This document shows positions 36,371-55,735 of a stretch of DNA of 64,000 bases, piece after piece; within the stretch, counting starts at the first letter, position 1, and each line of letters begins with the position of its first letter. This DNA comes from a virus (lineage: Duplodnaviria > Caudoviricetes): IMG/VR virus record IMGVR_UViG_3300025740_000004, positions 28,375-92,374 of that record, one strand, 5' to 3'. Position numbers and translations under genes: made by a program. The notes below the pieces were generated by a model. It was not told where the DNA came from, searched no databases, and saw only the letters and a program-made list of their open reading frames with translations.

Positions 36371-36534
36371 GAAATTATATCTTTGAATTTTGGTATTTCG
36401 AATTTCTTCTTTTTTGGAATTTCATATGCGTAAAATCCAAGTTTCTTAATTTCAAGTATATTCATTTCTTCGTCTAAAATAAATTTGACGAGTCCTGACG
36501 ATGTGGGACTAAGATCTAATCCAAGTATATTCAT
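36367..36534 (-). pseudogene. Truncated diverged copy of the RuvC-like gene 5' end (55 aa)
   Basis: MNILGLDLSPTSSGLVKFILDEEMNILEIKKLGFYAYEIPKKKKFEIPKFKDIIS* versus MIILGADLSPTSSGFTKFILDEDMKILDIQKLGFCAYTVPKKKEFKVPEYKDIIS. Confidence 0.9.
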
Positions 36535-36574
36535 ATATTCCTTCAATTGTTTATGATATTTATAGATAATAGTT

Positions 36575-37057: not shown

Positions 37058-37094
37058 ATGATTCCTGGTATTTGTTGAAATATTTATATAAAAA

Positions 37095-37123
37095 TGCTTT
37101 AGAATTTTATTTCTAAAGCTTTT
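37095..37123 (-). terminator. Intrinsic terminator
   Basis: GCTTTAGAA/TTCTAAAGC stem with T-rich tail on the minus strand. Confidence 0.6.
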
Positions 37124-37146
37124 CGATAATCAATCTATAAAATTAA

Positions 37147-37434
37147 TTAGTCTTCGTCTTCTTCAGTTTCTAATTCTGTACCAACGAGTTCTGCAATCTT
37201 TTGAACTGCTTTAAGAGCCTTTTCATCTTCAGTTTTGGTAAGATATTCAGCAAGCTTTGAAACAACAGTATCTAAAGCTTTGAAATTCTTTACCTTTCTC
37301 TCTTCCTTCTCGTCTTCCATTTCATCCTTCTGAACTTTCTTAGAAGGTTTTTCTTCTTTCTTCATTTCTTTAGGACAAATAGTAGCCTTTTCAGTAAGGT
37401 ATCTATTAACTTTATCAAAATCTACATCTTTCAT
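37147..37434 (-). CDS. Small charged late protein (scaffold/internal-like)
   Basis: CAGGAG RBS, ATAAATA box; leader ends YLTE. Confidence 0.7.
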   Translation of the reverse strand: MKDVDFDKVNRYLTEKATICPKEMKKEEKPSKKVQKDEMEDEKEERKVKNFKALDTVVSKLAEYLTKTEDEKALKAVQKIAELVGTELETEEDED

Positions 37435-37480
37435 ATTGGTTTAACTCCTGTTATTAAAATTATTTATCGAAACTATAGAA

Positions 37481-37714
37481 TTATTTTTCTAAAATCTTCT
37501 GAATCTTTTCGAACTGCTCTTTGGTAATAGATAACCAACGAGTTTCAGATTTTTCTCCCATAATTTTAATTTGAGGTTTAAAATCTTTAGAAAGTTTTAT
37601 TTTAGAAAACTCGTACTTAATATAATCCTTATCACTAAAATTAGTTTCCTTGTCTTTTGAAATAGTATTCTTCTCTTCGAGTAAATAATTTGTCTTAGTA
37701 AAATCTATATTCAT
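37481..37714 (-). CDS. Small late protein (leader MNIDFTKTNYLLEE)
   Basis: GGGAG RBS before ATG 37714. Confidence 0.65.
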   Translation of the reverse strand: MNIDFTKTNYLLEEKNTISKDKETNFSDKDYIKYEFSKIKLSKDFKPQIKIMGEKSETRWLSITKEQFEKIQKILEK

Positions 37715-37716
37715 TT

Positions 37717-38469
37717 TTATGCTCCCTTCTTTGTAATAGCTTTGTAAATTGCTTTCTTCTCTTCTTCTGACCAATTTCCAGATAAATGATAAGTTAAATA
37801 TTTTGTTTCACCAGTCTTATAATTTTCTTCACCATCATCTTTATAATATGTCCCAGAATGATATGATCCATTTGAAGGATTATTAGCAAAATTGTTCTTT
37901 AAGAATTTAATCGCATCTTCTACAGAATCAAATTCTTCACCTTCTTCATCTTCCCAACCCTTATCGTCAGTTTCACCAGCTTCTATAGAATCTTCATCCC
38001 AAATTTCATAAGAGACTGTAATTCTTTTACTATCATCTTTAGATTCATTAATGCTTTTATTATATTTGTCTGCAATTTTTTTAGCAGTTTGTTTTGATTT
38101 TTCAGAAATATCACCTTGAAAGTCTGACCAAGTTTTTGATTTTTTATCATATACTGCATATTCAGCATCATCGGCATCTTCTCTAGGATATATACCAACT
38201 TCAAAGGTTTTAACAGATTCTAATAATTTATTTTTAATATTTTCATTGATAGGTTCTACTTTAACTGCTTTTAACATAACTGGAGTTTTATCTTTAGACA
38301 TAGCTTTAACATTCTTTCCTAGATACGCCTTTTTACCAGCTTCGAAAGATCCTTTAAACTCTATATCTTTTTTCATGCCATTATCAAAAGTAACTCTTAA
38401 AACAGTTTTCGCTTCTGTTAGAGTATGTTTATCTTGTAAAAGTTTGTTTACTGATTCAAATAAATCCAT
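37717..38469 (-). CDS. Multi-domain late protein with repeated (L/I)xE cleavage-like sites
   Basis: LFES, LTEA, INEN, LLES and INES separate short domains; GAGGA RBS. Confidence 0.7.
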   Translation of the reverse strand: MDLFESVNKLLQDKHTLTEAKTVLRVTFDNGMKKDIEFKGSFEAGKKAYLGKNVKAMSKDKTPVMLKAVKVEPINENIKNKLLESVKTFEVGIYPREDADDAEYAVYDKKSKTWSDFQGDISEKSKQTAKKIADKYNKSINESKDDSKRITVSYEIWDEDSIEAGETDDKGWEDEEGEEFDSVEDAIKFLKNNFANNPSNGSYHSGTYYKDDGEENYKTGETKYLTYHLSGNWSEEEKKAIYKAITKKGA

Positions 38470-38493
38470 TGGAAAATCCTCTTTTATCATTAT

Positions 38494-38865
38494 TTATTTT
38501 AATTGATTTAATGCTATTCTAATTTGATGGGCAATCTCAGATTCATTTCCCATAAAGAAATATCTCTTCTTATCATACTCTATTCCAAAAACCTTTCCGC
38601 CCATCTTTGCATGAATAAATCCTAAAACATATCCAGAGTCTAAAAGTTCTTCATGATCATTTAAACCATAGTCATCATAAGTCACTGCAATATCTTGTAA
38701 TACTGTATGAACTTTTCTAGGATCTATTCCTTTCTCTTTTAGATAATATTTTAAAATATCTTCTATAGTATCTGATTCTGAAAATTCAAATTTTAATTTA
38801 GAAAAATCCCCATTATTACTTTCCATGAGATTTTGTCTTTTTTCTTTTAGATAACTTTTAAACAT
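38494..38865 (-). CDS. Late protein with leader MFKSYLKE..LMES
   Basis: AAGGAG RBS; leader motif. Confidence 0.7.
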   Translation of the reverse strand: MFKSYLKEKRQNLMESNNGDFSKLKFEFSESDTIEDILKYYLKEKGIDPRKVHTVLQDIAVTYDDYGLNDHEELLDSGYVLGFIHAKMGGKVFGIEYDKKRYFFMGNESEIAHQIRIALNQLK

Positions 38866-39604
38866 TCTTACTCCTTCCTTTATCTAATAATAGCTTCTTC
38901 ATAAACTCTTTGTAACTCTTCCATGCTTCTTTATCATCAAAATAATCTAACTCTTTTTGATAATTTGAATGTGAAATTTTTGGAATCCATTGATCAATTT
39001 CTTTTAATATCTTAGAATATTCCATACCTTTTAAAATCATATTCTCTATATTTCTCTCGGCCATTGTAGAAAGATTTGCCTTCTTCTCCCAAGGGAATGA
39101 AATGTATTGTTTATAATTTTTTGACTTCAATTGATCTTGCATTTGACCATCGACATCTAATTCTTTTCTAATCGTCCTGTCGTTATTAATAGGGTCTAAT
39201 GCGTGGCAAATTTCATGTCTAACCCTATCTATAAAATCTTCTTTGATAGATTTGTCTGAAAAGTTTTTAATCTGCTTTGGAGACATAAAATAAATTGTAA
39301 CTCTATTCATTTTTCCTACATCAAATCCACCATCGAATCTAATCAAATCTTTTTCAGGTTTTTGTGAAATTGTAAAAATGATCTTGTTAGAATTTTCATA
39401 AACATCATGAGTTATTCTTCTTTTAAAAATGTCTACAGAATCATGAGATAAGTTTCCTAAAATATGCTCCGGAGAATAACCTTCACGTTTTTGTAATTTC
39501 AACCATTCAGAAGTTAATTCATAAGCTTGATTTGCATAGTCTTTCATATCATCAGAAAGAGTCATTAAATTTGTAGATTCGAAAAGTGCTCTAAAAGAAA
39601 TCAT
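38858..39604 (-). CDS. HExxH zinc-metallopeptidase-like late protein
   Basis: MISFRALFES; RHEICHALDP..Y..FPWE. Confidence 0.7.
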   Translation of the reverse strand: MISFRALFESTNLMTLSDDMKDYANQAYELTSEWLKLQKREGYSPEHILGNLSHDSVDIFKRRITHDVYENSNKIIFTISQKPEKDLIRFDGGFDVGKMNRVTIYFMSPKQIKNFSDKSIKEDFIDRVRHEICHALDPINNDRTIRKELDVDGQMQDQLKSKNYKQYISFPWEKKANLSTMAERNIENMILKGMEYSKILKEIDQWIPKISHSNYQKELDYFDDKEAWKSYKEFMKKLLLDKGRSKNV

Positions 39605-40338
39605 TGAAAATCCCTATCAATAAGTTTATTTATAGATAGAATAAATCTCTTCCAAACTTTAGGATCTTCGTGATAAAATTTTAATAAAGAATTTTCTGGA
39701 GTATAGTTTTTCAAATAATTCAAAGCGTCTTTTTTAGATCTGGATTTCTTCTTAATATCTTTAAAAACTTCTTCTGCTTCTGTAGATATATAAGCATCAA
39801 GTTCCCAAGGAAATTTATAATACTCTTTAAATAATTTTTCTAAATCTTTTTTAGCATTTTGTCTCTCGTCAAAATCTTTAGAATAGATAATAATTTTCTT
39901 TAACTTTTCTACATTATCCCTAAAAGATTTTATAACTTTATCAGACTTTTCTTTTAATTCTGGTTTGTTTAATTTTGGATCTATAGAATGAATTAACTCA
40001 TGTAAAATAAGTCTTCTAACATTTTTAAATTCATTTCCGCCTTTTTTAAAATCATTGTAAAGATCTTCTGAAACTGTTATCCAAAGAACATCATCCTTAA
40101 TCCAAAAGTGATATTTACTATCTTTTATATTAATATTTACTTTAACTTCTTTATCACCAAACTTAGATTGAATTTCTCCAGAATATATTTCTTTTTGATC
40201 AAGTTTCTTTTGAAAATAATTGTAAGTAACATGAGAATCTATAAGTTCATAAAGTTTTTTAATAACTTCATCCGCAAAATTTTCCATAGATTTATTAATT
40301 TGAATAGATGCTTCTGTTAAAAATGTAGTAAAGTTCAT
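39601..40338 (-). CDS. HExxH zinc-metallopeptidase-like late protein (paralog of previous)
   Basis: MNFTTFLTEA; LHELIHSIDP..YY.FPWE. Confidence 0.7.
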   Translation of the reverse strand: MNFTTFLTEASIQINKSMENFADEVIKKLYELIDSHVTYNYFQKKLDQKEIYSGEIQSKFGDKEVKVNINIKDSKYHFWIKDDVLWITVSEDLYNDFKKGGNEFKNVRRLILHELIHSIDPKLNKPELKEKSDKVIKSFRDNVEKLKKIIIYSKDFDERQNAKKDLEKLFKEYYKFPWELDAYISTEAEEVFKDIKKKSRSKKDALNYLKNYTPENSLLKFYHEDPKVWKRFILSINKLIDRDFQ

Positions 40339-40367
40339 ATGATTATTTATGTTTTCTAAATAACTAT

Positions 40368-43604: not shown

Positions 43605-46600
43605 ATGATAAAATTGAAGGAGAATGAAAGAATGGTTAAATATGATGATGTGAAGGATTTGACTACAGAAGAATATTTTAATGGTAATAATTTTAGTATA
43701 GATATTTTTAATAAGAAATATTCTTTGAACGGTGAAACATATGTTCAAACATTAAAGAGAGTTTGTGATTATATCGCATCGGCTGAAGATACTGAAGAAA
43801 AAAGAAAATACTGGTCTGATAGATGGTTTGATGAAATATTTAATGATTGGTGGCACCCTGCTGGAAGTATTATGCAAGGAGCAAATTCAGGTAAAAAAAT
43901 TTCAATGGCTAACTGTACTACAATTTCTTTGGGAGTAAATGATGAAGATTCTGAATGGGATAATTTAGAATCTATTTATAAAAATACAGCTTATACTGTT
44001 GCTAAGACCGCAGCATACAGACAAGGTCTCGGTTTGGACTTTTCTAGAATCCGTCCACAAGGTTTGAATGTTTTGAATAGCAGTAAAGAATCTCAAGGTG
44101 TTATTCATTGGATGAAATTTATTGATTCTATTGGAAATTTTATTGGTCAATCTGGTAGAACTCCTGCTATGCTTATGTCATTAAATATTTCTCATCCAGA
44201 TATTGAAAATTTTATTACTGTCAAATCAGATTATACAAAAATTCAAAATGCTAATATTTCAGTACAAATTACAAATGATTTTATGGAAGCCGTTAAGACA
44301 AATTCTGATTGGGAGTTGATTTTTGAAATTCCTGAAGTAAAAGTAGGCGATAAAGTTTATGTGGATGTACATTCTATTGATATGGATTGTTTAAAAGATG
44401 AATCTGGAAAGTATTATAAAATTGCTACAAAAAATCGTCCTTATGAAAAGATTGTAAAGAAAGTAAACGCAAAAGAATTGTTAGAACTTCTCGCAAAAAA
44501 TATGTTACAAAATGCAGAACCAGGAGTTCAATTTATAGATATGGCGAAGTATTGGAGTAATTCAGATTATCTTTATGAAGAAAATGTAGAATACGATCCA
44601 AGAATTATTTCCACAAATGCTCCATTAGTAGGTGATACTATAGTAAATTCTATAGAATATGGTAAAACCACTATAAAAGATTTATATAATAATGGTAATG
44701 CTAGTTTATTTGTTTATAATATAGCATCAAAAGCACCACAAATATTAACAATTAATTCACAATTTAAGAAATTTGAAAACCAACAAGTTTGGAAAATTAT
44801 TCTTGAAAACGGAAAAATATTTAAATGTAACGGAGAACATAAGTGGTATGTAGATGGTTCTATGAAAGAAACTTATAAATTAATTGCTGGAGATTCTTTT
44901 GTATTAATTTCTGGTCTAGAGACACAATTAATTAAGATTATTTCTATAGAAAAATTAAATGAATTTGAAGATATGTATTGTGCTGTAGTTCCGACATATC
45001 ATTCATTTTTAGTAGATGATGGTTATGTAACATCAAATTGTTCAGAACAATATCTATCAAGAGAAAGCTTATGTGTTCTAGCATCAATTAATTGTGGTAA
45101 ATTTTCTACAAATAAATACGAAGAAGAACTTTCTATTATTGCGCCATCTGTAAATAGATTTTTGGATAATGTAAATGAAATGGAAGTTAGGGATAATACA
45201 TATGCGACACCTCATCAAAAAGTTGCAATTCAAGCTTTACGAAGAACTGGCGCAGGGTTAACAAATCTTTCTGGATGGTTATTTAAGAATAATGCTGCTT
45301 ATGGATCTACAGAAGGAAATGAACTTTTAGAAAAATTTAATGAAAGATATAATTATTTCCTTTATAAATCTTCTATTGAACTTGGTGAGGAAAAAGGTTC
45401 ATTTGGAATGTTTTCAGAAGAAAAATATACTAAATCTCCATTCATTCAAAATCTTATGAAAAAGGGATTAAATTTTAAAACAATGAGAAATGTTACTTGT
45501 TCATCAATCGCACCAGCAGGAACACTATCTACCATGTTTAGAGATTTCGTTATGTCATATGGTGTAGAGCCAGCATTTGGATTATATTTCTGGAAAAGAA
45601 CTAGGATATCTGGAAAGTATGAATATTACTTTTGTGTTCCTAATGTTGTTAGAGAATATTTTAAACAATCCGGATATGAAATTCCAATGACAGTGGATTG
45701 CTTAAAAGATACATGGGACGGTTCTTTAGGAGCACCTATCGCAAAGTTTATTGATGAGTCTAGAGAAAAGTTAGCAATCAGATTTAAAACTGCTACAGAA
45801 GTTCCAGTTCAAGATAAATTAGATCTTATGTCTAGGTTAATGAAAGATGTAGACTCTTCAATTTCAGTTACTTATACTCTTCCTGAAGGTTCTACTTGGA
45901 AAGATACTTATGATCTTATCGTAGGAGCTTATGAAAAGGGTGTCAAGTCTATTGCAGCATTCCCAGACAAGAAAATGTATGGAATTATTTCATTCATTCC
46001 TTTTAGAGATCTTGCTGTAAAGTTGACTAAAGAAAATGTCGCAATTTATGATGGTAATTTATCTGAAGAAGAAAAGAAAGAATTGGGTATTGTTAAAGCT
46101 GGTTCACAAAAATCATTTAGTTCAGATGCACCAAAGAGAAATAAAACTTTAGATCAAGATGTTTATGTTGTAACGTCTAAAGGAAAAAAATATATTATTT
46201 CTGTTGGTAAACAAGATGGTAAACTTTATGAGATTTTTGGTGGATTAATTCCAGATAATCTTTCTTTTAAGTTCACACACAAACATGGAAAAATGACAAA
46301 AGTTTCACAAGGTCATTATACATTAGAAATTGGTGATGATATAGTTGTTAACAATTTTGGAGAAATTTTTACTGCGGAAGAACAAATGTTATTTAGAATG
46401 ATTTCAACATCTTTACGTCATGGAATTCCAGTAAAGTTTATTGTTCAACAAATGGCAAAATCTGCTGAAGATATGTCTTCGTTAACATCAGTAGTTAGTA
46501 GAGTTTTGAAGAAATATATTCAAGATGGTGAAACTGCAAATGGAATGAAATGTCCTGTGTGTAGTAGTAAAGAACTGATATATGGTGATGGATGTGTTAG

Positions 46601-46631
46601 CTGTTCTTGCGGATGGTCACGATGTTCTTGA
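43605..46631 (+). CDS. nrdJ: Class II (AdoCbl-dependent) ribonucleotide reductase with intein
   Basis: ANC, NA|CSE, CVLASIN, SIAPAGT, C-terminal TSCPD-like/zinc-ribbon region; no nrdB nearby. Confidence 0.88.
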   Translation: MIKLKENERMVKYDDVKDLTTEEYFNGNNFSIDIFNKKYSLNGETYVQTLKRVCDYIASAEDTEEKRKYWSDRWFDEIFNDWWHPAGSIMQGANSGKKISMANCTTISLGVNDEDSEWDNLESIYKNTAYTVAKTAAYRQGLGLDFSRIRPQGLNVLNSSKESQGVIHWMKFIDSIGNFIGQSGRTPAMLMSLNISHPDIENFITVKSDYTKIQNANISVQITNDFMEAVKTNSDWELIFEIPEVKVGDKVYVDVHSIDMDCLKDESGKYYKIATKNRPYEKIVKKVNAKELLELLAKNMLQNAEPGVQFIDMAKYWSNSDYLYEENVEYDPRIISTNAPLVGDTIVNSIEYGKTTIKDLYNNGNASLFVYNIASKAPQILTINSQFKKFENQQVWKIILENGKIFKCNGEHKWYVDGSMKETYKLIAGDSFVLISGLETQLIKIISIEKLNEFEDMYCAVVPTYHSFLVDDGYVTSNCSEQYLSRESLCVLASINCGKFSTNKYEEELSIIAPSVNRFLDNVNEMEVRDNTYATPHQKVAIQALRRTGAGLTNLSGWLFKNNAAYGSTEGNELLEKFNERYNYFLYKSSIELGEEKGSFGMFSEEKYTKSPFIQNLMKKGLNFKTMRNVTCSSIAPAGTLSTMFRDFVMSYGVEPAFGLYFWKRTRISGKYEYYFCVPNVVREYFKQSGYEIPMTVDCLKDTWDGSLGAPIAKFIDESREKLAIRFKTATEVPVQDKLDLMSRLMKDVDSSISVTYTLPEGSTWKDTYDLIVGAYEKGVKSIAAFPDKKMYGIISFIPFRDLAVKLTKENVAIYDGNLSEEEKKELGIVKAGSQKSFSSDAPKRNKTLDQDVYVVTSKGKKYIISVGKQDGKLYEIFGGLIPDNLSFKFTHKHGKMTKVSQGHYTLEIGDDIVVNNFGEIFTAEEQMLFRMISTSLRHGIPVKFIVQQMAKSAEDMSSLTSVVSRVLKKYIQDGETANGMKCPVCSSKELIYGDGCVSCSCGWSRCS
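44622..45038 (+). mobile_element. Class 3 mini-intein (139 aa) starting with Pro
   Basis: PLVGDTIV..CNGEHKW..MYC..VTSN|C; W(B12)-C(F4)-T(G5) triplet. Confidence 0.85.
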
Positions 46632-46661: not shown

Positions 46662-48067
46662 TGTAAATTCATTTATATGATGTTATATATAAACATGAGT
46701 GAATATAAATTTTTATTTTAAAGAAAATATAAATAATTATATAAATCTAAGGAAGTAAATGATCAGAAGTTCTAAACATAGTGTGAAATTCGCAAATGGT
46801 GGAAAGCAAGAACTGCTTTCCATGTTTGTAGATTGTTACAAAGATGCTTTAGAATTTTATGTTTCTTATTTGTGGGATTCTAGAATTGAACATGATGGTT
46901 ATTTGTTAGATGTTGCTCAAGGGTTTTATGTATGTCCTAAGTTCATTTCTTCGGAAGTGAAACCAAAGGTTTCACGATTGACCGCAAGAGCTTTAAAATG
47001 TGCAGCTACACAAGCAAGTGCGATTGTAAGATCAGTGTTGAATAAAAGAGAAAGAGACGAGAACCGTCTAGAGTGGAAGAAATCTAAAGGGATGAAAGAT
47101 GAAAGGTTAGAGAAGAAACTTTCAAAGGCTCCAACTAAGCCAAATTTAAAAAATATTCATTGTGATTTGAATTCTATTTTGTGCAGTTTGACCGAAGGTC
47201 AAAACACTTTTGATTTTTGGTTAGAATTGCATTCTTTGTTTTCGGATGTTCGTGGATTGAAAGTTTTTCTTCCTTTGAAGAACTTCACTAGAGCGAAGAA
47301 GTGGCAGTCTCAAGGAGAGATTCTAAATGGGATTTCAGTTTCTAAAGAGACGGTGACTTTGCGTTATGAAGTTGCAGGAGTGCCTAAGAAAGAGATTGGA
47401 GATGTCATAGCAGTTGATCAAGGCTTGTCAACTTTATTGACAACTTCAAGGAATGATGAGTTTCCTTTAGATATACATGGTCATACATTGAGTTCAATTT
47501 TAGAGAAGCTATCTAGTTGCAAGTTAGGCTCAAAGGGATTTGATCGCGCTTCCGCGCATAGAAAGAATCACATCAATTGGTTAGTTAAACAATTAAACTT
47601 AAGCAATGTCAAAGAGTTAAAATTAGAGAACATAGAGAATATTAAATATGGAGTGTGTGTTTCTAGATTGTTGAAGCATTGGAGTAATCCATTGATTCGA
47701 GATTCGTTAATTAAACTAGGTGAGGAACTAGGCGTCCTAGTGACTCTTGTAGGTAACGAATTTAATAGTCAGAGATGTAACAAATGTGGATGGGTCCAAA
47801 AATCAAACAGAAAGGGAAAAGTGTTTCATTGTAAACACTGTCATCATGAAGATGATGCAGATGCTAACGCATCTAAAAACATCTTAGATAGACATATGTT
47901 GTTTGAGTTACCTTTTGGGTTCAGGTCATTGAAGAAAAACTTAGTTGGTTTCTTTTGGAATCAGAATGGTTTGTTTTCAAAGACTGGTGAGGAGATTACA
48001 GTCCCTCAATCCATAAAAACGTAAAAATATAACTAATCAAAAGATTTACTTATATTCTACGTAACTG
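46662..48067 (+). mobile_element. Non-autonomous TnpB element (IS607/IS605-like) inserted in a phage promoter
   Basis: TG(T) at both ends; removal rebuilds TTGACA-17-TATCTT; ATATAAA repeats at the left end; no tnpA. Confidence 0.7.
46759..48024 (+). CDS. tnpB: TnpB RNA-guided endonuclease
   Basis: RuvC VDQG / LENI / DADANASKNI; zinc finger SQRCNKCG..CKHC. Confidence 0.92.
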   Translation: MIRSSKHSVKFANGGKQELLSMFVDCYKDALEFYVSYLWDSRIEHDGYLLDVAQGFYVCPKFISSEVKPKVSRLTARALKCAATQASAIVRSVLNKRERDENRLEWKKSKGMKDERLEKKLSKAPTKPNLKNIHCDLNSILCSLTEGQNTFDFWLELHSLFSDVRGLKVFLPLKNFTRAKKWQSQGEILNGISVSKETVTLRYEVAGVPKKEIGDVIAVDQGLSTLLTTSRNDEFPLDIHGHTLSSILEKLSSCKLGSKGFDRASAHRKNHINWLVKQLNLSNVKELKLENIENIKYGVCVSRLLKHWSNPLIRDSLIKLGEELGVLVTLVGNEFNSQRCNKCGWVQKSNRKGKVFHCKHCHHEDDADANASKNILDRHMLFELPFGFRSLKKNLVGFFWNQNGLFSKTGEEITVPQSIKT

Positions 48068-48075
48068 TTATCTTA

Positions 48076-48107
48076 GGCTGATGGGTTGAGCTATGTCAGT
48101 CTTTTTT
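48076..48107 (+). terminator. Intrinsic terminator
   Basis: GGCTGA/TCAGTC stem followed by TTTTTT. Confidence 0.7.
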
Positions 48108-48121
48108 ATTAGAAAGGTTTC

Positions 48122-48568
48122 ATGAAAGTTATTAATAAAAATATTTTAGAAATTTCTGATGGATTGATTTGCCATGCTTGTAATTGTCAGAACAAGTTTG
48201 GAAAAGGTTTAGCTAAAAGTATTCGAGATAAGTTTCCGCAAGTTTACCATGAGTTTTTAAAATTTTCTTCGCTACATAATTTTCCAAAAGATAGATTGGG
48301 AAAGATTCAGGAAGTTTATATTAATAAAAATTTATCTGTAGTGAATATTTTCTCACAACTTTATTATGGAAATTCTAAAGAGACTAGAATAGATTATAAT
48401 AATTATCCAGAAATGAGAAAATGTTTTATAGAGTTAAGTAAAATTAGAAACAATAGACCTATATATTTCCCATATGGTTTTGGATCTGGTTTAGCTGGTG
48501 GTGATTGGAATAAAATTTCTAGTATGATAGAAGAATATTTTCCAGATGTTATTTATTGTAAAATTTAA
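48122..48568 (+). CDS. Macro-domain (ADP-ribose processing) protein
   Basis: HACNC..GKGLA, NIFSQ, GSGLAGGDW. Confidence 0.88.
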   Translation: MKVINKNILEISDGLICHACNCQNKFGKGLAKSIRDKFPQVYHEFLKFSSLHNFPKDRLGKIQEVYINKNLSVVNIFSQLYYGNSKETRIDYNNYPEMRKCFIELSKIRNNRPIYFPYGFGSGLAGGDWNKISSMIEEYFPDVIYCKI

Positions 48569-48580
48569 AGAAAGGTTTCT

Positions 48581-49117
48581 ATGAATAGTTATGAATTTTC
48601 TAAATTTTATTCTGGAAAGGTTATTAAAATCGTTCAGAATTTGATCGATGGAAAGAAATATAAAAATTGTAAGAATAAAAATGGTTATACGTTTAATATG
48701 AAGAGTTATGGTTTTAGAACAAACTTTTGGATTGAATTTGTTTCTGGAACTCTTCGAAATGGTGATTTATTTTTATATGATGATTGTAGAGGAATTTGTA
48801 CACCAGATTTTATTAGAATTCCTATCTTTCATAATGATAAAGTTTTTGTAGAATTAGATTATTTAAGATCAGTTTTAATTCATGAGTTTACGCATTGTTA
48901 TCAGAAACAATATACAGTAAGTTTTAAAAGTTCTGAAGATGATTATTATTTGTGGTTGGCTGATGAGAATGAACAGGAAGCTATTTTAAATCAATTTGAA
49001 TTTGGATTAGAAAGTGGAAAGAGTTTTGGAGAATTACTTAAGATAAGAAATTTCAAAGAGTTGTATAAAATTTATCCTGAATTGTTTGTAAAATTTAAAG
49101 AAAGATCAAGAGAATAA
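48581..49117 (+). CDS. HExxH-motif protein
   Basis: LIHEFTHCYQ..E.EA. Confidence 0.65.
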   Translation: MNSYEFSKFYSGKVIKIVQNLIDGKKYKNCKNKNGYTFNMKSYGFRTNFWIEFVSGTLRNGDLFLYDDCRGICTPDFIRIPIFHNDKVFVELDYLRSVLIHEFTHCYQKQYTVSFKSSEDDYYLWLADENEQEAILNQFEFGLESGKSFGELLKIRNFKELYKIYPELFVKFKERSRE

Positions 49118-49168
49118 AGAAAATTCTGAACGTAAACTTTTAGAAAAATTGAAAAGGAAATATGAAAA

Positions 49169-49456
49169 ATGAACTATATATCTGAGCAAAAGAGATTAAA
49201 TATTGTAATAACTATTTGGTCTAGCATTTCTGGAATGTTTTGTAATATGTTAAATCCAGAATTTCGAGGACATAATTTTAAATGGAAATCTGATTTGATT
49301 ATAAACTATGCTTGTGATATGGTGTGGTGTCAACATAATTGTAATGATAAGATGGTTAGAAATTTTGAATGTACTGTAAAAGAATATAGTAGAAAACTTG
49401 CAATAGAAATATATAATGATATGTTAGAAAAATCTAATTTAAAGGATGAAAAATGA
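49169..49456 (+). CDS. Hypothetical protein
   Basis: ORF track. Confidence 0.6.
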   Translation: MNYISEQKRLNIVITIWSSISGMFCNMLNPEFRGHNFKWKSDLIINYACDMVWCQHNCNDKMVRNFECTVKEYSRKLAIEIYNDMLEKSNLKDEK

Positions 49457-49695
49457 TTAATATTTTGTTACTATTATTTTCTACAAATTGTGATTCTCTA
49501 AATTCTGAGATTTATAATTTTTCTAGAAAGTTAAAAGAAGTAGAGTTTTGTAAATGTGTTTCTAGAAAGAGTTTTGTAAGTTCTGTAAAGATTCCAAAAC
49601 TTTCTTCTGACGATAAAGAAAATTGTTCTATGTTATTAAATGATATAGAAGGACTTACAGAAAAATACAAACAAATTAAAAAGGAATTAAAATGA
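49453..49695 (+). CDS. Hypothetical protein with short hydrophobic N-terminus
   Basis: AAGGA RBS; MINILLLLFS. Confidence 0.6.
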   Translation: MINILLLLFSTNCDSLNSEIYNFSRKLKEVEFCKCVSRKSFVSSVKIPKLSSDDKENCSMLLNDIEGLTEKYKQIKKELK

Positions 49696-50130
49696 ATGAT
49701 TCTAGATATGATATTTTTAAAAAATATAAATTCACTAGTGATGGAACTTGGTTTGTAGAAGGAACTGATGTGTTTTTAGATTTTTTTTCATCCTAATGTT
49801 TTAGTTCCATATGGTATTAGACAAAATGAAAATGACTTTAAAGGTTGTGTCGTTGGTGATTATAGATTTGATGAAGAAAATTGCGGAACTGATGAATTTT
49901 ATATTAATGGTAAACCTTCTGAAGAATATACATTGGAAGAGTTAGATGAAATAGAAAAAGAATATAATGAAGCGATTTCTAAATTTACTAAAGAAGAGTT
50001 AAATGAATATGCTGAAAAGTTTCTTTCTGTTCAATTAGTCAATCTTAAATTTAAAAAGGTTGATGAAATTAGAAGAATTGATAAATTAATCTCGGAGAAA
50101 TGGAATGAAAAAGAAACTATTAAATTTTAA
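49692..50130 (+). pseudogene. Gene split by a T8 tract (frameshift)
   Basis: ATG 49692 frame stops just after T8 (49781-88); T7 would join the open frame of ORF 49933..50130. Confidence 0.6.
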
Positions 50131-50542
50131 TGAACCACTTAAAGAAAATATTTCTGTTGGTGAAATTTTAGATATTATAAATCAAAGATATGGAAAAGTT
50201 AATCTATATGAATGTCAATTTTATATAGATGATCCAAATTATGATTATGATGAATACTCTACTTTACATTTAAAAATTCAAAGAGAAGAAACTGATGAAG
50301 AGTTTAATAAAAGATGTAAAAAGTCTAAGAAGAAATATAAACCAACATTAGAAGATTTGAAGAAAGAGTTTGGAGATTTTAATCATTTTAACTCAGATGT
50401 TGTAGAATCATTTCAAGCATTATATAATCTAAAAATGAAATCTAAAGATGATCCTAATTATATAAAGAATGTTTTAATCAACGCTGGAATCATAAATGAA
50501 GAAGGAAATTTAACAGAACATTATAGGAATGAAAATACTTGA
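50105..50542 (+). CDS. Hypothetical protein
   Basis: GGAG RBS; REETDEEF motif. Confidence 0.7.
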   Translation: MKKKLLNFNEPLKENISVGEILDIINQRYGKVNLYECQFYIDDPNYDYDEYSTLHLKIQREETDEEFNKRCKKSKKKYKPTLEDLKKEFGDFNHFNSDVVESFQALYNLKMKSKDDPNYIKNVLINAGIINEEGNLTEHYRNENT

Positions 50543-50554
50543 ATAAATAATTTC

Positions 50555-51394
50555 ATGCGATTTAAAACATTTTATTTAAAAGAAGTTGTTTCTCCAGAAA
50601 AGCCAAAAAAAGTATATTCAAAAAGCGTAATTAAAAACGCTGGGACAAATACCGCACATAAACTTAGATATAAAGAATTCGTAACAAAAAACGGAAATAA
50701 AGTTTATGTTACATTTAAAGATACTTTTGATGATGGTATTAAAATAGATTTTCAAGTAAATGATTCTTTTGATGATTCTAATTTAAACGATGTGAATGTA
50801 TTAAAAAATGTTTTATATGTTGTTTTAAGAGAAGTTAATAAAAAGAAATATAAAAGAATCGAATTGAATCCAAAACATAGATCAGATTTAAATAGAAATA
50901 ATAAACATATTAGATTTGATTTATTTAGAAAGTTGATTAATAAAAATCTTAATGATTATTCGGAATATTATGTTGATCGTTCTGATTATGGCGAATCAGA
51001 TCATATTTTATTAGTAAGAAAAGAAGATATAAAAGAATCTGAAGAAAGAACTCATGGAAAACTTTTATCCGAATTAAAACCTTCTTTGAAAACAGTTATG
51101 ATTTTTAGAGCAAGAGATTCTAAAGGTGATGAATTTGATTCTAAAGATTATGTAACATTGTCTTCAAAATTTGCTCTAGAACATGCTGAATCAAATCATG
51201 TATATAATGATGAACAATATATTGTAATAAGAGCGATAGTTCCTACAAATCAATTAGCAGAAGCATCAAATCCTGGAGAATGGTTTTATATAGGTCCGAA
51301 AATTCATGGTGATGTCGTTTATAAATCTCTTGGTCCAGATGATTATGAAGGGAAAATAATTGATTTAAAATTTGCTAGGAAATTAAAATTATGA
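50555..51394 (+). CDS. Two-domain late protein, leader MRFKTFYLKE, C-terminal ART-like domain
   Basis: ATAAATA upstream; internal IKES; IFRA..YVTLS..A..HA..GEWFY. Confidence 0.65.
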   Translation: MRFKTFYLKEVVSPEKPKKVYSKSVIKNAGTNTAHKLRYKEFVTKNGNKVYVTFKDTFDDGIKIDFQVNDSFDDSNLNDVNVLKNVLYVVLREVNKKKYKRIELNPKHRSDLNRNNKHIRFDLFRKLINKNLNDYSEYYVDRSDYGESDHILLVRKEDIKESEERTHGKLLSELKPSLKTVMIFRARDSKGDEFDSKDYVTLSSKFALEHAESNHVYNDEQYIVIRAIVPTNQLAEASNPGEWFYIGPKIHGDVVYKSLGPDDYEGKIIDLKFARKLKL

Positions 51395-51811
51395 GATTTA
51401 AAACATTTTATTTGAAAGAGAATATTAAATTTTTTTCGAAAACTACATTAGATTTTGTGAAGGATCTTGGATATTCTAAATCCATCACTCCAAGAAATAC
51501 AATAATCGTTTATCATGGAACTTCAAAAAAGAATGCAGATAACATTTTAAAAACTGGAAAATTTAAAGGACATCCGTGGTTTGCGTTGGATAAATCAATT
51601 GCTGAAAAATATGCTACTTCTCATGGTGGAAAGAATAATACAATTTTGACTTTAGAAATCGATCCATCATCAGTTCTTCCAGTAGCTGGTTCATATTTAT
51701 CTGCTAGAATGGAAGGACTAACAATTCATGGAAAAGATTCTAATAATAATGTTTGGCATCTTCCGAATGAGGAATTAAAATTATGAGATTTAAAGAATTT
51801 TATTTGAAAGA
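51381..51811 (+). repeat. 39-bp junction repeat (51381-51419 / 51773-51811; partial copy 50555-50583)
   Basis: AATTAAAATTATGAGATTTAAA(AC/GA)ATTTTATTTGAAAGA, 37/39 identical. Confidence 0.95.
51391..51786 (+). CDS. ART-like late protein, leader MRFKTFYLKE
   Basis: VYHGTS..NA..I...G, WFA...A..YA. Confidence 0.7.
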   Translation: MRFKTFYLKENIKFFSKTTLDFVKDLGYSKSITPRNTIIVYHGTSKKNADNILKTGKFKGHPWFALDKSIAEKYATSHGGKNNTILTLEIDPSSVLPVAGSYLSARMEGLTIHGKDSNNNVWHLPNEELKL

Positions 51812-52364
51812 AGCATCTGGTCAAAATTTAATAATTGTTGATATACAACCTTCTTATAAAAAGGCTATTAAATTTTCTATAGAATCTTTTTGTGATCATT
51901 TAATTGAAGAAGATTATACTAAGATTCTATATTTATATAATGGACCAGATTTGGGTATGGAAAATTCTGATGATATAATGGATTTTCTTATTGAAGATGG
52001 TTTAGATTATGATGAAGAAAAAGTTGAACAAATGCCTCATATGACATTTTATGAAAAAGGATATGCATTTTATAGGGATATGATGGATTCTGGTTATGAT
52101 TATAAAGACATTGTAAAACTTATTAAATATATGTTAAGTAAAAATTATAATACGTCTGAAGATTTAGAAGAAGATGAATGGAAGACCTTAAAAATTGAAG
52201 ACCCTGCACCTAATAGAATTTTTATACCAGATGTTCTAGATATGCTTAAAAAATATAATAATATTGTTTTGTGTGGTGGAAAGAATGAATGTTTAGCAGA
52301 GATTGAAATTTGTTTAGATGTTCTTGACAAACCATACACATTATTAAATAAGTTTGTTTATTAG
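51783..52364 (+). CDS. Isochorismatase/cysteine-hydrolase-like late protein, leader MRFKEFYLKE
   Basis: LIIVDIQP..EKG..LCGGKNECL (D/K/C triad pattern). Confidence 0.65.
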   Translation: MRFKEFYLKEASGQNLIIVDIQPSYKKAIKFSIESFCDHLIEEDYTKILYLYNGPDLGMENSDDIMDFLIEDGLDYDEEKVEQMPHMTFYEKGYAFYRDMMDSGYDYKDIVKLIKYMLSKNYNTSEDLEEDEWKTLKIEDPAPNRIFIPDVLDMLKKYNNIVLCGGKNECLAEIEICLDVLDKPYTLLNKFVY

Positions 52365-52403
52365 TCGTTATATAAATACTTGAAACCTTAAAGGAAATAA
52401 ACT

Positions 52404-53075
52404 ATGTCAGAATTTAGAAATTATGTAGAAGATACTATGTTATTTGAATCTTATGTTGGAGAAGTTGAATCTAAAGAAGATTTTCAAGAACTTCTAACAG
52501 TTTTAACAGAATGTGAAGAAAGACTTGATGAATTTCTTGGTCTAGGAAAAGTTGGATCCGCTCTTAAGAAGCTTTCTGATAAAGGTGATAAGAAAGCCGA
52601 AGAGGTCAAGAAGGCCACTAAGGAGACTGTAGAGAAGGGTAAAGATGTGGTCAAGGGAATGGCTAAAGATGCTGTAGACGCTGTTAAAAGGGATGCTAAA
52701 GAAGTTGCGCAGAGTCATAAAGAGATTGCTGTAGCTGTTGGAAAGAAAACATCTGAACTCGCGAAAGAAGCTAAAGATAAGTTCGTAAAAGTTTCTGCTC
52801 AAGGTCGAGATGCTTTAAAGAAGATTTTCAAAAATATTAAAGATGCTAGTGAAGATCAGAAGAAAGTATTAGCAGAACTCGAACCATTGTTTATGAAAAT
52901 TGATGATGGAAAGAAGTCTGTAAGCGGTAGTGAAGGAATTAAAATTTTGGCGGCAATCCTCGGAATGGGACCAGATGGACAAACTCCTTCTTACAAAAAC
53001 TATACTAAGAAACTTGAAATGCTTCGTACTACTCCTATGTTAAGTTCTTTCAAGATTTCTGTAAAAAAGATTTAA
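52404..53075 (+). CDS. Ala/Lys-rich helical late protein (probably abundant)
   Basis: TATAAATA box, AAGGA RBS, LFES and LDEF sites. Confidence 0.75.
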   Translation: MSEFRNYVEDTMLFESYVGEVESKEDFQELLTVLTECEERLDEFLGLGKVGSALKKLSDKGDKKAEEVKKATKETVEKGKDVVKGMAKDAVDAVKRDAKEVAQSHKEIAVAVGKKTSELAKEAKDKFVKVSAQGRDALKKIFKNIKDASEDQKKVLAELEPLFMKIDDGKKSVSGSEGIKILAAILGMGPDGQTPSYKNYTKKLEMLRTTPMLSSFKISVKKI

Positions 53076-53096
53076 AAATTTCATAAAACTCTTTCA

Positions 53097-53135
53097 AAAT
53101 GCTAATTGATTAATCTCTTTTAGCATTTTCTTTTT
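53097..53135 (+). terminator. Intrinsic terminator
   Basis: AAAATGCTAA/TTAGCATTTT stem plus T-tract. Confidence 0.6.
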
Positions 53136-53149
53136 GGATAAATACTCAT

Positions 53150-54478
53150 ATGATAAACGAAAATTTACTAAACATTGCAGATCATTATTTAACAGAAGCT
53201 TCAAATACTTATTTAACAGTTTTGAATCAATATTATAATAAAAAGACTGGAAATAATTATCCAAATCCAGATGAATCTAGAGAAGATCTTCAGCAAAAAG
53301 TTGTAGATATTGCTTCCGAAATGAATCTAGATGTTCCTGGAAAAGATCTTAGAACAAAAGCTAATAATGCTAATCGATTAATCTTAGCAAATTTAAAAAA
53401 TGTAAAACCAGATACTGAAAAGAAAACTGGTCCAAAAACTTCTATCACTACAACTGGAACAGATACTGAAGAAGCACCTAATGATATAGAACAAAAGAAA
53501 TTCCCTAAGTATGATGAGTTTAGAAAAAAATGGTATGCCACAACAGTTTCTATGGGTTGGCCTAAAGATTTAAAAGTTCCAGATGTAAATGATAGTCTTT
53601 CTGAAAAAGGTATTATATATCCTTGGAGTAGTGTTACAAAATCTGCTTATCCATTTAATAAGAGAGGAAAAGGTGTAGTAACTTTTAGAAACTATACCAA
53701 AAAAATTCAAGATTATTTGTATACTAAATTTGAAAATGATCTTCCAGGATTAAAGAGATTATTAGAAAAGGTTGAATCTATTGTAGAAGTTGAGAAACAA
53801 TTTTTAAAAAAGAAACCTACAAATTTCGTCGGAACTCTTTTATTGAATATGTTTAAAGGAATTGGTGGAACTGAAAAGGATGAAGCTATTTTAAAATGGT
53901 TAGGTCAAAAGTCTACTGGAATGACTGTATTTGAATATCAGAAATATATTTTAGAAGAGATGTTAACAAAAATGTCTGTAGGTGATGATGTATCTAAAAC
54001 ATTAAAACTTATTCTATTTCCTTTATATAAACAGATTAAGAATACTTGTGAGAAATATTTTATTATAGAACCTGTTAAATTTGAAGATAGAAATTTCCAC
54101 GACAACGAATACCAAGCATATTTTAATGTAAAGGTTCGTCCTGGTACAAAATCTCAACAATACTCTATGGCTTATTCTCCTTTCGTATTTGTTTTAGAGA
54201 ATAATGTTTTACCACTCCTTGAAGGAAAAGGTATAGGATCTAAGTCTGGAAGAAAGTTAGAATCAGATGTAGATGTAGATGATGTAAAAGGGTTAATAAA
54301 ATCTTTAAAGAATACTACAGAAGATGAAGCATTAAAGAAAATAAATAAATCTCCAGATATAGAATTGGTTTATGATGCTTTAGATGATCAAGATAAAGTT
54401 ATAGGAAAATATTTTATAGAGTTTGGATATTTTAATAAAGGTTGTAAGATAACTGTTGGATATCGTTCGGAGAAATAA
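53150..54478 (+). CDS. Large late protein, leader ending YLTEA
   Basis: ATAAATA 5 nt before ATG. Confidence 0.75.
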   Translation: MINENLLNIADHYLTEASNTYLTVLNQYYNKKTGNNYPNPDESREDLQQKVVDIASEMNLDVPGKDLRTKANNANRLILANLKNVKPDTEKKTGPKTSITTTGTDTEEAPNDIEQKKFPKYDEFRKKWYATTVSMGWPKDLKVPDVNDSLSEKGIIYPWSSVTKSAYPFNKRGKGVVTFRNYTKKIQDYLYTKFENDLPGLKRLLEKVESIVEVEKQFLKKKPTNFVGTLLLNMFKGIGGTEKDEAILKWLGQKSTGMTVFEYQKYILEEMLTKMSVGDDVSKTLKLILFPLYKQIKNTCEKYFIIEPVKFEDRNFHDNEYQAYFNVKVRPGTKSQQYSMAYSPFVFVLENNVLPLLEGKGIGSKSGRKLESDVDVDDVKGLIKSLKNTTEDEALKKINKSPDIELVYDALDDQDKVIGKYFIEFGYFNKGCKITVGYRSEK

Positions 54479-54479
54479 T

Positions 54480-54698
54480 ATGTCAAAATATAATAATGCA
54501 TTACAAGAAGCAAGAAGACTTTTAGGAGAAACTGAAATTCAAGAAGAAGTGTCTCCACAAATTCAAAGTCTATTAAATCAAAAAGCTAGTTTACAAAAGA
54601 GAATAGATAATTTAGATAAACAAAGAAAGCCATTAATTCTTCAAATGCAAGAAATTAATAAAAAACTTACTATGTTAAATCAAGATATCAACGCTTAA
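54480..54698 (+). CDS. Small coiled-coil late protein
   Basis: GGAG RBS; MSKYNNALQEA. Confidence 0.65.
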   Translation: MSKYNNALQEARRLLGETEIQEEVSPQIQSLLNQKASLQKRIDNLDKQRKPLILQMQEINKKLTMLNQDINA

Positions 54699-54745
54699 CT
54701 TGAAATTAAATTTTTGAAGACTATTTTAATTTTGAGCTTGTGAGA

Positions 54746-54793
54746 AATTAAATTTATAAAATCCTTGACAATCTAAATTAAAGATGCTATCAT
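54746..54793 (+). promoter_or_regulatory. Phage sigma70-type promoter (family copy)
   Basis: AATTAAATTTATAAA..TTGACA-17-TATCAT. Confidence 0.8.
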
Positions 54794-54811
54794 AGAATAA
54801 GTGAGGAACCT

Positions 54812-55735
54812 ATGATAAGTCATTTTAACGAAAACTTTACAAAAGAATATTATAACAAAAATCCTAATTACATTTTACATAACTTTGATGAGAATATGAG
54901 AAATGTTTTAGAGAATGGATTTCAGTTAAATGATAGGACTGGAGTTGGATGTAAATTTCTTCCAGGGATTTTGACCACAGTAGATGTTTCTAAAAGAGTT
55001 CCTGTCCCGACCAGAAGAAAAACTGCTTGGAAATCTATGTTGAAAGAATATCTTTGGTTTATTTCTGGTTCTAATAATATAAAAGATTTGAATAAAATGG
55101 GATCTAAGGTTTGGGATTTTTGGAGAGATGATGAATGGTCTTTAAAAAATGGATTTGAAGAAGGTTCTATAGGATATGGTTATGGCACAAATTTAATTAA
55201 TTATGGTTGCGATTTAAATGATATGGAAAATAATCCTGGATTTAATCAATTAGACTATGTGATAAACGAATTGAAGAATAACAAAAACTCTAGAAGAATT
55301 TTATTTAATTTTTATAGGCCAGATAAGTCCGGGAAAAATGATACTATATTACCACCTTGTCATAATCAATATCAATTTATTCCAGAACCTGATTCAAATG
55401 GGATTTTATCAAACCTGTCAGTATGTGTAACCCAAAGATCTTCTGATAGCTTTGTCGGAAACTTATCTACAAACCTTCAAGGTGCTGCGTTTTTACTTTA
55501 TATGATTTGTCAACAAGTAGATATGAAACCAAGTAAAGTATTTCATTTCTCTGGAAACTTTCATGTATATAATAATCACGAAAGTTCTTTAAGAGAATAT
55601 TTGAATAGAGATTGTCCAGATTCGCCTATATTAAAATTGAATCCCAAAAACTCTATCTATGATTATACCGCAGATGATTTTGAATTGATTGAATATAACC
55701 CTTTAGAAAAAATGAAATTGGAGATCGCTGTATGA
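54812..55735 (+). CDS. td: Thymidylate synthase (ThyA type)
   Basis: DRTGVG, EYLWF, SRR, LPPCH, QRSSD...N, H.Y.NH. Confidence 0.92.
   Translation: MISHFNENFTKEYYNKNPNYILHNFDENMRNVLENGFQLNDRTGVGCKFLPGILTTVDVSKRVPVPTRRKTAWKSMLKEYLWFISGSNNIKDLNKMGSKVWDFWRDDEWSLKNGFEEGSIGYGYGTNLINYGCDLNDMENNPGFNQLDYVINELKNNKNSRRILFNFYRPDKSGKNDTILPPCHNQYQFIPEPDSNGILSNLSVCVTQRSSDSFVGNLSTNLQGAAFLLYMICQQVDMKPSKVFHFSGNFHVYNNHESSLREYLNRDCPDSPILKLNPKNSIYDYTADDFELIEYNPLEKMKLEIAV

Follow-up and report, generated by a model that had tools for sequence, protein, structure and literature searches.

The DNA analysed here (the window) comprises 64,000 nucleotides (nt) of IMG/VR virus record IMGVR_UViG_3300025740_000004 (positions 28,375 to 92,374) and carries, between positions 50555 and 52364, an array of three genes that begin almost identically and continue into unrelated bodies. 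We propose, at a probability of roughly 0.78, that the array is the internal-protein (injected-effector) locus of a deep-branching T4-like phage and that it evolves by homologous exchange at the shared leaders. The evidence that carries this proposal is the repeat at each gene start, the T4-like head genes in the same contig, the folds and families of the cargo and the variation of the arrays, with breakpoints at the leaders. The principle has been known from T4 since 1994-96, and the array is a further example of it in a distant lineage, not an integron.

Three genes with a shared start

The three open reading frames (ORFs) lie head to tail on the + strand at 50555-51394, 51391-51786 and 51783-52364 and encode proteins of 279, 131 and 193 aa (cassettes 1, 2 and 3) with the N-termini MRFKTFYLKE (leader 1, 50555-50584), MRFKTFYLKE and MRFKEFYLKE, respectively. 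Cassette 1 ends in KLKL* and cassette 2 in ELKL*, and at both junctions stop and start codons overlap as ATGA, the ATG of cassette 2 overlapping the TGA of cassette 1. A repeat search of the window returned three copies of a 39-nt repeat, starting at 50545, 51381 and 51773 (spacings of 836 and 392 nt), with identities to the reference copy of 85%, 100% and 95% (37/39). A preliminary description of this DNA had claimed that three successive genes with near-identical starts have unrelated bodies and that the junction repeat spans the last codons of the previous gene and the ATGA, with 37/39 positions identical at 392-nt spacing. Both claims are borne out, the latter by the repeat search and the former by the shared leader and by BLASTP, which detected no significant mutual similarity among the bodies minus their first ten residues (best E = 0.06). 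With up to three mismatches allowed, a 29-nt leader pattern matched at the three array sites only and gave 0 matches in 100 dinucleotide shuffles; the strict leader pattern (close variants of MRFKxFYLKE) was absent outside the array when the whole 92-kb contig was searched. Adjacent genes with identical starts would also be expected of tandem paralogs that diverged everywhere except at the N-terminus, with no cassette exchange. However, two of the bodies differ in predicted fold (ADP-ribosyltransferase (ART) against isochorismatase-like), each cassette has a separate homolog family and whole cassettes are replaced in strain variants, and we consider descent from one gene barely credible.

The identity of the leaders at the DNA level was set against codon bias. 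The genome has a GC content of 27.9% and an extreme codon choice (TTT 83%, AAA 75%, TAT 89%, AGA 77% and GAA 87%). Over the 30 coding nt, the three leader pairs have 6/9, 6/8 and 7/8 identical synonymous codons, where codon usage predicts 5.6, 5.2 and 5.2, and the leaders differ synonymously at CGA/AGA, TTA/TTG and GAA/GAG. The DNA identity of the coding part is mostly peptide conservation plus codon bias, and since the leaders differ synonymously while their identity stays near the codon-bias prediction, selection acts on the leader peptide. The excess of identity sits upstream, in 10-14 nt where copies 2 and 3 have AGGAA(A)TTAAAATT in common, an element made up of a Shine-Dalgarno box and its spacer. 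Before cassette 2 this element reads AGGAAATTAAAATT (51377-51390, +) and lies within the 3' end of cassette 1, where it codes for ...RKLKL; before cassette 3 it reads AGGAATTAAAATT (51770-51782, +), within the 3' end of cassette 2, coding for ...EELKL. Copy 1 has a different upstream context, AATAAATAATTTC, which also precedes two cassettes of a related locus, L005. Hence the possibility, raised in the preliminary description itself, that codon bias accounts for the DNA identity is largely true inside the coding leader, whereas the upstream 10-14 nt exceed it.

A T4-like phage and a putative capsid-targeting leader

The source record (92,374 bp, estimated completeness 37%) encodes a prohead protease of the gp21 type (Peptidase_S77, PF03420; 73.8 bits), a Gp23 major capsid protein (PF07068; 225.7 bits), a scaffold-like 338-aa protein between the gp21 and gp23 genes, and a portal protein. 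DNA polymerase gp43, helicase gp41, clamp, clamp loader, td, frd and ribonucleotide reductase (RNR) are also encoded, together with a UvsX-like recombinase (13303-14445, +; phrog_97, 1.4e-72) and gp46/47-like genes (2178-3938 and 4394-5431). The gp23 is at most ~33% identical to any deposited phage gp23, its best matches being cyanomyoviruses, and blastn of the array region against deposited phages gave no match; the stretch was found in activated-sludge and wastewater metagenomes. The phage is a deep-branching, uncultured member of the T4 superfamily.

The T4 internal proteins (IPs) are diverse, with a capsid targeting sequence (CTS) as their only common part (PMC3012670). The first 10 residues of IPIII are sufficient for head incorporation; within the CTS, residues 4 and 7 are important for targeting, processing depends on residues 8 and 10, and gp21 cleaves after L/I-x-E (work of Mullaney and Black, reviewed in PMC9026906). 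In the T4 record, ipII and ipIII have identical DNA from the ribosome binding site (RBS) through MKTYQEFIAE and then unrelated bodies, and ipI starts MKTFKEF. The array leader is 10 residues long and has a basic residue at position 2, an aromatic residue at 7, L8 and E10 in all three genes, and a protein 71% identical to cassette 3 (P0003) shares its first seven residues, MKTFKEF, with T4 IPI. When aligned with T4, the gp23 of the phage has LFE/S opposite the cleavage site LTE/A, and its gp21 has LLIE opposite T4 LLIE. In the AlphaFold model of cassette 3 the leader forms a detached low-confidence helix with a predicted local distance difference test score (pLDDT) of 56, against 91.5 overall. 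By analogy with T4, MRFKxFYLKE is best read as a packaging signal of the capsid-targeting type. The leader would direct the cassette protein to the scaffolding core within the prohead, cleavage after L8-x-E10 would be the work of the gp21-type protease, and the freed cargo would remain in the head and enter the host with the DNA.

The shared start might instead be an RNA or translation element, such as a high-efficiency initiation region or 'downstream box', copied for strong late expression and having no part in protein targeting. Such an element would agree with a conserved stretch that takes in the Shine-Dalgarno box and spacer upstream of the ATG and with a sequence that is A/U-rich and unstructured. 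However, conservation tracks the peptide and not the RNA, and relatives change codons and residues while keeping an aromatic-rich start that ends in [LI]xE; head-type and overlap-type junctions differ upstream and encode the same peptide; and the motif coincides with the specificity predicted for a protease encoded by the phage. We therefore hold this explanation to be improbable and retain capsid targeting as the role proposed for the leader.

Cassette turnover and the mode of exchange

Strains were compared by matching the metagenome contigs of four public runs to window positions 48000-55000 at 88% likeness; the joints cited have sides of 255 letters, and runs X7 (0.34 of words) and X9-X24 (0.24-0.32 of words) lay outside the comparison. 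In run X6, a 58.5-kb contig follows the order of the window but has 1243 other letters in place of 50586-51390, with breakpoints at the end of leader 1 (50585) and at the ATG of leader 2. In X8, ~536 extra nt stand between two leader copies ahead of cassette 1, and a second X8 contig is unbroken from 51143 to 54698 through cassettes 2 and 3. The X5 contig covers cassette 1 and diverges 9 nt past leader 2. The metagenome locus L006 is 98.5% identical to window 52369-52850 and has just upstream a different, 180-aa cassette whose leader agrees with leader 3 at 30/30 positions; this cassette is distantly related to GNAT-like cassettes of another related locus, L016. The arrangement of cassettes 2 and 3 is present in independent samples, and array content varies, at the leaders. 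The check for variable cassette number and order suggested in the preliminary description was thus positive: number, identity and order differ in relatives and in near-identical strains, with breakpoints at the leaders. Upstream, at window 49691-50103, 413 nt with three small ORFs are missing from contigs of X5, X6 and X8, with a joint microhomology of 6 nt; this is an indel polymorphism just upstream of the array.

The preliminary description went further and regarded the array as integron-like. In such a system the 39-nt junction would be the site of a site-specific recombinase, and cassettes would be excised as circles and inserted at the array head. In its favour, the cassettes are delimited by a repeated junction, relatives differ in how many there are and in what order, and a single promoter-like box precedes the array. 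However, Phage_integrase (PF00589) had no match in the 92-kb contig, while all control genomes match; this is not conclusive, as the contig is ~37% complete and a distant gene is possible. No tyrosine recombinase gene lies beside the array. The attC sites of integrons are defined by folded hairpins, whereas folding of the junctions studied here is not attC-like and, for either strand, does not exceed that of shuffles (z = -0.35 to +0.91). The synonymous differences between leaders and an identity close to the codon-bias prediction point to selection on the peptide. Moreover, the X8 insertion lies between leaders in the head region and the L006 and X5 changes lie in the middle or at the 3' end, so exchange is not confined to one attI-like site. 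On these grounds an integron-like system is very unlikely, and the dedicated recombination site that it calls for was not upheld. Of the three roles that the preliminary description gave to the junction (recombination site, translational coupler and packaging signal), that of packaging signal is the best reading of the leader, and the array appears to be set up for late, coupled expression.

Short repeated regulatory cassettes serve T4-type phages as sites of homologous recombination, by which ORFs are inserted, deleted and replaced, and mini-circles arising from such repeats are detectable by inverse polymerase chain reaction (PCR) (PMC2839356). The IP loci of T-even phages are described as polymorphic and shuffled at conserved tag/start motifs (Repoila 1994, as cited in PMC2839356, PMC3012670 and PMC12373910), and the same study is credited with analogous elements at two variable IP loci, > 30 IP variants being known (Repoila et al. 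1994, as cited in PMC2839356). Because no tyrosine recombinase was found in the ~37% complete contig and no hairpins at the junctions, UvsX and gp46/47 are present and there is T4-type precedent, homologous exchange at leaders and flanks is the economical explanation, and the comparison with integrons is an analogy of outcome, not of mechanism. Since the same ~30-40 nt stand at each cassette start and the flanks are conserved, recombination by UvsX and gp46/47 could swap, insert or delete cassettes in frame, and a newcomer cassette bearing the leader would be expressed and packaged at once.

Late-promoter-like box and translation

A T4-type late-promoter-like box, AATAAATA, is located at 50542-50549 (+), 5 nt before the ATG of the first cassette. 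It is the sole + strand ATAAATA box up to TATAAATA at 52371-52378 (+), the late-promoter box of the next gene, which is followed by AAGGAAA and the ATG at 52404. In T4 the late promoter TATAAATA spans -13 to -6, and the T at -13 is weakly conserved in relatives (PMC1524935). With the box in the position of its T4 counterpart, the start site is predicted at the A of the ATG at 50555, and the late mRNA of the first gene would be leaderless under the T4 box rule. The arrangement NATAAATA-N5-ATG is the commonest spacing class in the contig (6/33 box-ORF pairs). It occurs in the window at 50542-50557, 53137-53152 and 40336-40351 (- strand) and, before the window, at contig positions 28111, 25048 and 5233 (- strand); the 16-mer (G/A)ATAAATAATTTCATG is common to three of these sites, and several of the genes behind them have CTS-like N-termini. 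A scan of the region for sigma-70 promoters and terminators gave nothing above shuffles. A single late transcript starting from the AATAAATA box at 50542 probably covers all three genes, and translation would pass from gene to gene through the ATGA overlaps, each with an AGGAA box 9-10 nt upstream. The preliminary statement that one late promoter heads the array thus agrees with a single + strand box before 52371 and is plausible from the sequence, with the qualification that the box stands 5 nt from the ATG.

Predicted cargo of the cassettes

Cassette 1 consists of the leader and two domains (~residues 8-160 and 160-270), of which the C-terminal one matches phrog_2579 (1.3e-8). Among 215 library representatives at E <= 0.001 each domain was found separately and in varied architectures, the C-terminal domain co-occurring with ART-PolyVal, GNAT, NUDIX and DUF5661 in multidomain proteins. 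The closest relatives start MRFKQFLLE, MRFKQFYLKE or MNFKSFYLTE; the closest homologs are P0040 for cassette 1, P0036 for cassette 2, and P0001 and P0002 for cassette 3. From its matches, cassette 1 appears to be a polyvalent-type protein made of two separately mobile domains.

Cassette 2 gave a weak Pfam ART-PolyVal match below the cut-off (E 0.002; 19.3 against 31.2 bits), while related cassettes in L005, L008 and L016 exceed it, and its homolog P0037 is named a Tpt1/KptA-family enzyme by JGI. A shallow alignment of seven sequences (A4) shows invariant Y41, H42, T44 and Y102, a YHGT...Y core. The AlphaFold2 model has a pLDDT of 79.5, and its structural matches are nearly all ADP-ribosyltransferases or Tpt1, with Z of only 7.2-4; ART toxins and Tpt1 rank highest (Z 7.2-5). 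Behind MRFKTFYLKE, cassette 2 therewith carries a small domain of predicted ADP-ribosyltransferase fold, of the H-Y type.

Nearly all of the 35 homologs of cassette 3 have a variable leader before a conserved LIIVDIQPSY core. D20, K92 and C170, invariant throughout 28 sequences, map in the model to strand ends or to the N-terminus of a helix; by analogy with the D-K-C triad of the family, we propose them as a candidate catalytic triad. When the model was compared with 48,161 PDB representatives, 25 of the top 26 matches were isochorismatase-family, nicotinamidase or cysteine-hydrolase entries (Z 7.9-9.8, root-mean-square deviation ~3 A, 114-125 residues aligned). Foldseek against PDB gave TM 0.3-0.4 with NgBR as the top match, and the alignment-independent search gave the isochorismatase-like fold. 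No significant match was obtained for cassette 3 in Pfam or in a PDB profile search with its alignment (A3), and tblastn against 50,697 deposited phage genomes gave none. The modelled structure suggests an isochorismatase-like hydrolase fold (cysteine hydrolase/nicotinamidase) for the part behind MRFKEFYLKE.

PADLOC returned no match for the three cassettes and only weak coiled-coil-type matches for the 223-aa protein encoded behind them. A leader-type N-terminus is retained in the homologs of cassette 3 and in the closest homologs of cassette 1, its sequence varying between relatives. As early-acting effectors the array would deliver an ADP-ribosyltransferase fold, an isochorismatase-like hydrolase and a polyvalent-type two-domain protein, to which relatives would add a Thoeris inhibitor, GNATs and a CCA/polyA nucleotidyltransferase. 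In P0007, P0041, P0042 and P0046 a leader of the same type precedes a fusion of GNAT with the cassette 3 domain or with one or other of the cassette 1 domains, and the P0042 fusion has GNAT plus ART-PolyVal; judged from these sequences, cargo domains shuffle within cassettes as well as between them.

Arrays in related viruses

The exact 29-nt leader pattern had no match in IMG/VR. A back-translated pattern found L005 and, in the metagenome collection, L006 and L008; L007, from the metagenome collection too, was a chance match to the back-translated pattern and was discarded. An IMG/VR search anchored on the 223-aa flank protein confirmed nothing, and a search anchored on the macro-like protein (alignment A1) found only distant loci, none with leader arrays. 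The same locus between RNR and dihydrofolate reductase (DHFR) holds three cassettes in the window, five in L005 and 8-9 in L016. L005 (13 kb) is syntenic with the window from RNR onward; its array comprises a cassette 3 homolog, a 595-aa ART-PolyVal protein, a 124-aa gene, a small ART-like gene and a 173-aa gene, followed by a homolog of the 223-aa gene. The array of L016 contains Tad6, two GNAT-like genes, ART-PolyVal, a cassette 3 homolog, a PolyA_pol/CCA-type nucleotidyltransferase and unknowns, and is flanked by homologs of the 223-aa gene and of the 442-aa gene of the window. The ART-PolyVal matches in these two arrays reach 65.9 bits. The 173-aa gene of L005 (12117-12638) matches Pfam Tad6 (PF25188) with 123.8 bits and L016:4531-4989 does so with 121.2 bits (cut-off 27), whereas the window itself is without a Tad6 cassette. 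Tad6 is a type I Thoeris inhibitor (PMC13728456). The Pfam domain begins only at residue 24-45, so that leader and linker are additions to the inhibitor proper. Four genes of L008 begin with MSFKQFYLKE, MSFKEFYMIE, MTFKDYYKED and MSFKNYLVEE. A nucleotidyltransferase of the PolyA_pol/CCA-adding type with a CTS-like leader was seen at L016:7582-8739 (MKFKLFYIQE) and at L008:2973-3317 (MKRFKLFYEN), which suggests that a tRNA-repair-type enzyme may be delivered with the DNA.

We further surveyed leaders in 80 viral loci holding a cassette 3 homolog. Sets of genes with a shared leader and unrelated bodies are present in 21 of them (94 genes), and 197 shared-leader pairs were counted against 1 in the reversed-sequence control. 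The leaders form at least five families, for example MKLLREYIRxLLxE, MKITKRQLRRIIKEE, MIKLKxLLxE, MKLxKYLNE and MINFKDFLLE. The motif [LI]xE with E at residues 8-18 is found in 91% of the 94 leader genes against 24% of 921 control ORFs, and every family shows it. Peptidase_S77 is encoded in both near-complete records with such arrays. Very long runs of MKLLREYIRxLLxE genes occur in viral records of 80-285 kb (L075:852-13819, L064:3568-14565, L072, L078, L086 and L090). L075 has at least 10 genes with MKLLREYIRxLLxE and L064 has 11 with MKITKRQLRRIIKEE; by their sequences, two leader types occur within one phage.

Several points weigh against the array being an internal-protein locus shaped by exchange at its leaders. 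The leader departs from the T4 CTS at the residues most important for targeting, with K and not Y at position 4. L/I-x-E is short, and nearly a quarter of the control ORFs (the 24% above) hold one in the same N-terminal span; the p-value of its enrichment is inflated because leaders within a family share descent. The late box is AATAAATA and not TATAAATA, and it would leave the first gene without a 5' untranslated region, which is unusual. The strain evidence consists of metagenome contigs at 88% likeness, not isolates, and L006 may be partly chimeric, because the region upstream of its cassette is ORF-free and matches nothing. Packaging, cleavage and injection, like the timing of expression and the recombination pathway, are read from genes by likeness to the T4 system.

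Comparison with known systems

The array shares with T4 IPI-IPIII a 10-residue leader ending in L/I-x-E on unrelated, non-essential-looking genes and a gp21-type protease in the genome, and it resembles ipII/ipIII in that neighbouring genes repeat the same RBS-plus-leader DNA. The T4 locus and, by prediction, the array are late islands among early and middle genes, and both vary between close relatives. T4 Ip1-3 inhibit GmrSD enzymes (PMC12373910), and cargo aimed at host defences would be a further common feature. In contrast, the T4 leader is MKTYQEFIAE and that of the array MRFKxFYLKE; ipIII and ipII lie ~115 nt apart, whereas the array is a compact unit fused by ATGA; T4 cargo consists of small basic inhibitors, whereas that of the phage and its relatives is mostly enzyme folds of 130-600 aa plus a Tad6-type inhibitor; and the promoter box of the array abuts the start codon, packaging being read from genes. 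In T4 the ART enzyme Alt undergoes targeting to the head, processing by gp21 and injection (PMC5512222, PMC9026906), and the ART-PolyVal cassettes of relatives, like cassette 2, would supply cargo of this kind. Nevertheless, Alt belongs to the R-S-E clade (PMC5512222), while the present cassettes fall in the H-Y type, having a YHGT core and ART-PolyVal/Tpt1-like matches, and Alt is 682 aa long and encoded elsewhere in the T4 genome.

Shuffling at promoter-early-stem-loop elements (PeSLs) in RB49 and phi1 likewise involves short repeats at gene boundaries, hyperplastic regions and whole-ORF exchange by homologous recombination (PMC2839356, PMC4122927). In these phages circles with one chimeric repeat were seen by inverse PCR, a tested analogue of the '392-bp circles' proposed in the preliminary description. 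PeSLs differ in consisting of an intergenic early promoter and a stem-loop terminator, where the array has a coding leader and RBS and no stem-loop. For polyvalent proteins, injection together with the phage DNA has been predicted (Iyer et al. 2017, PMC5512222), as it is for the cassettes, and they share with the cassettes ART-PolyVal, GNAT, NUDIX and metallopeptidase-like domains and the C-terminal domain of cassette 1. They carry many domains per polypeptide, whereas the arrays consist mostly of single-gene cassettes, each with its own targeting leader. Integrons have in common with the array a promoter-proximal set of promoterless, exchangeable single-gene cassettes with repeated boundaries; they differ in that here no integrase was found (92-kb contig), the sites are unfolded, the boundary is translated and exchange is simplest as homologous recombination.

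Beyond the window, we tentatively suggest that a lineage-specific CTS-coding leader could act as a portable adaptor, serving at once in translation, in head packaging and as a short homology arm. Across a large and almost entirely uncultured part of the T4 superfamily (phages of sludge, wastewater and aquatic origin, among them records of 200-360 kb), arrays of 3 to > 12 genes would make up a common and rapidly changing stock of proteins for injection (ARTs, hydrolases, GNATs, CCA-adding enzymes and Tad6-type inhibitors), and several of the late mRNAs would be leaderless, with NATAAATA 5 nt before the ATG. If true, injected arsenals could be recognised in metagenomes directly by the leader signature. 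In practice, the leader offers a simple sequence handle to list candidate injected anti-defence effectors of metagenomic phages. The T4 tag-loading logic, more than 30 years old, would here be at work in a distant uncultured lineage with mostly enzymatic cargo. Sister arrays carry a Thoeris inhibitor family that was described only recently, several of the cargo families are uncharacterised, and the isochorismatase-like family is not among the 50,697 deposited phage genomes. The strain contigs represent natural cassette replacements with leader breakpoints, which makes the 'modular shuffling' model testable in a defined wastewater population.

Other features of the window and contig

The conserved right flank of the array comprises two putative late genes. 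The first (52404-53075, +) encodes a 223-aa lysine/alanine-rich, mostly helical protein that starts MSEFRNYVEDTMLFE/S, a candidate head-internal protein, and has the canonical TATAAATA followed by a Shine-Dalgarno box. The second (53150-54478, +) encodes a 442-aa protein that starts MINENLLNIADHYLTE/A and stands behind GATAAATA-N5-ATG; its homolog closes the L016 array. At some distance, four genes have looser leaders that end in [LI]xE, three of them behind ATAAATA boxes: 35816-36370 (+; MGFKQFLLE/A, with an ART-like YHGTS core), 36575-37057 (-; MLFTEFLILNE/S, behind TATAAATA), 38494-38865 (-; MFKSYLKE/K) and 39601-40338 (-; MNFTTFLTE/A, behind CATAAATA-N5-ATG). These genes at 35816-40338 are probably a second internal-protein cluster.

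Between RNR and the macro-like gene, at 46759-48024, stands a TnpB-like gene (Cas12f1-like TNB domain, 1.3e-12) that is missing there in the syntenic L005. The RNR large subunit gene (43605-46631) is split by an intein-like insert (weak Intein_splicing match, residues 354-435), and its L016 homolog has an extra HNH-like sequence. Identical 569-aa portal genes, together with their neighbours, are present twice in the contig before the window begins, at contig positions 12630-14339 and 17298-19007, which is either a tandem duplication or an assembly artefact.

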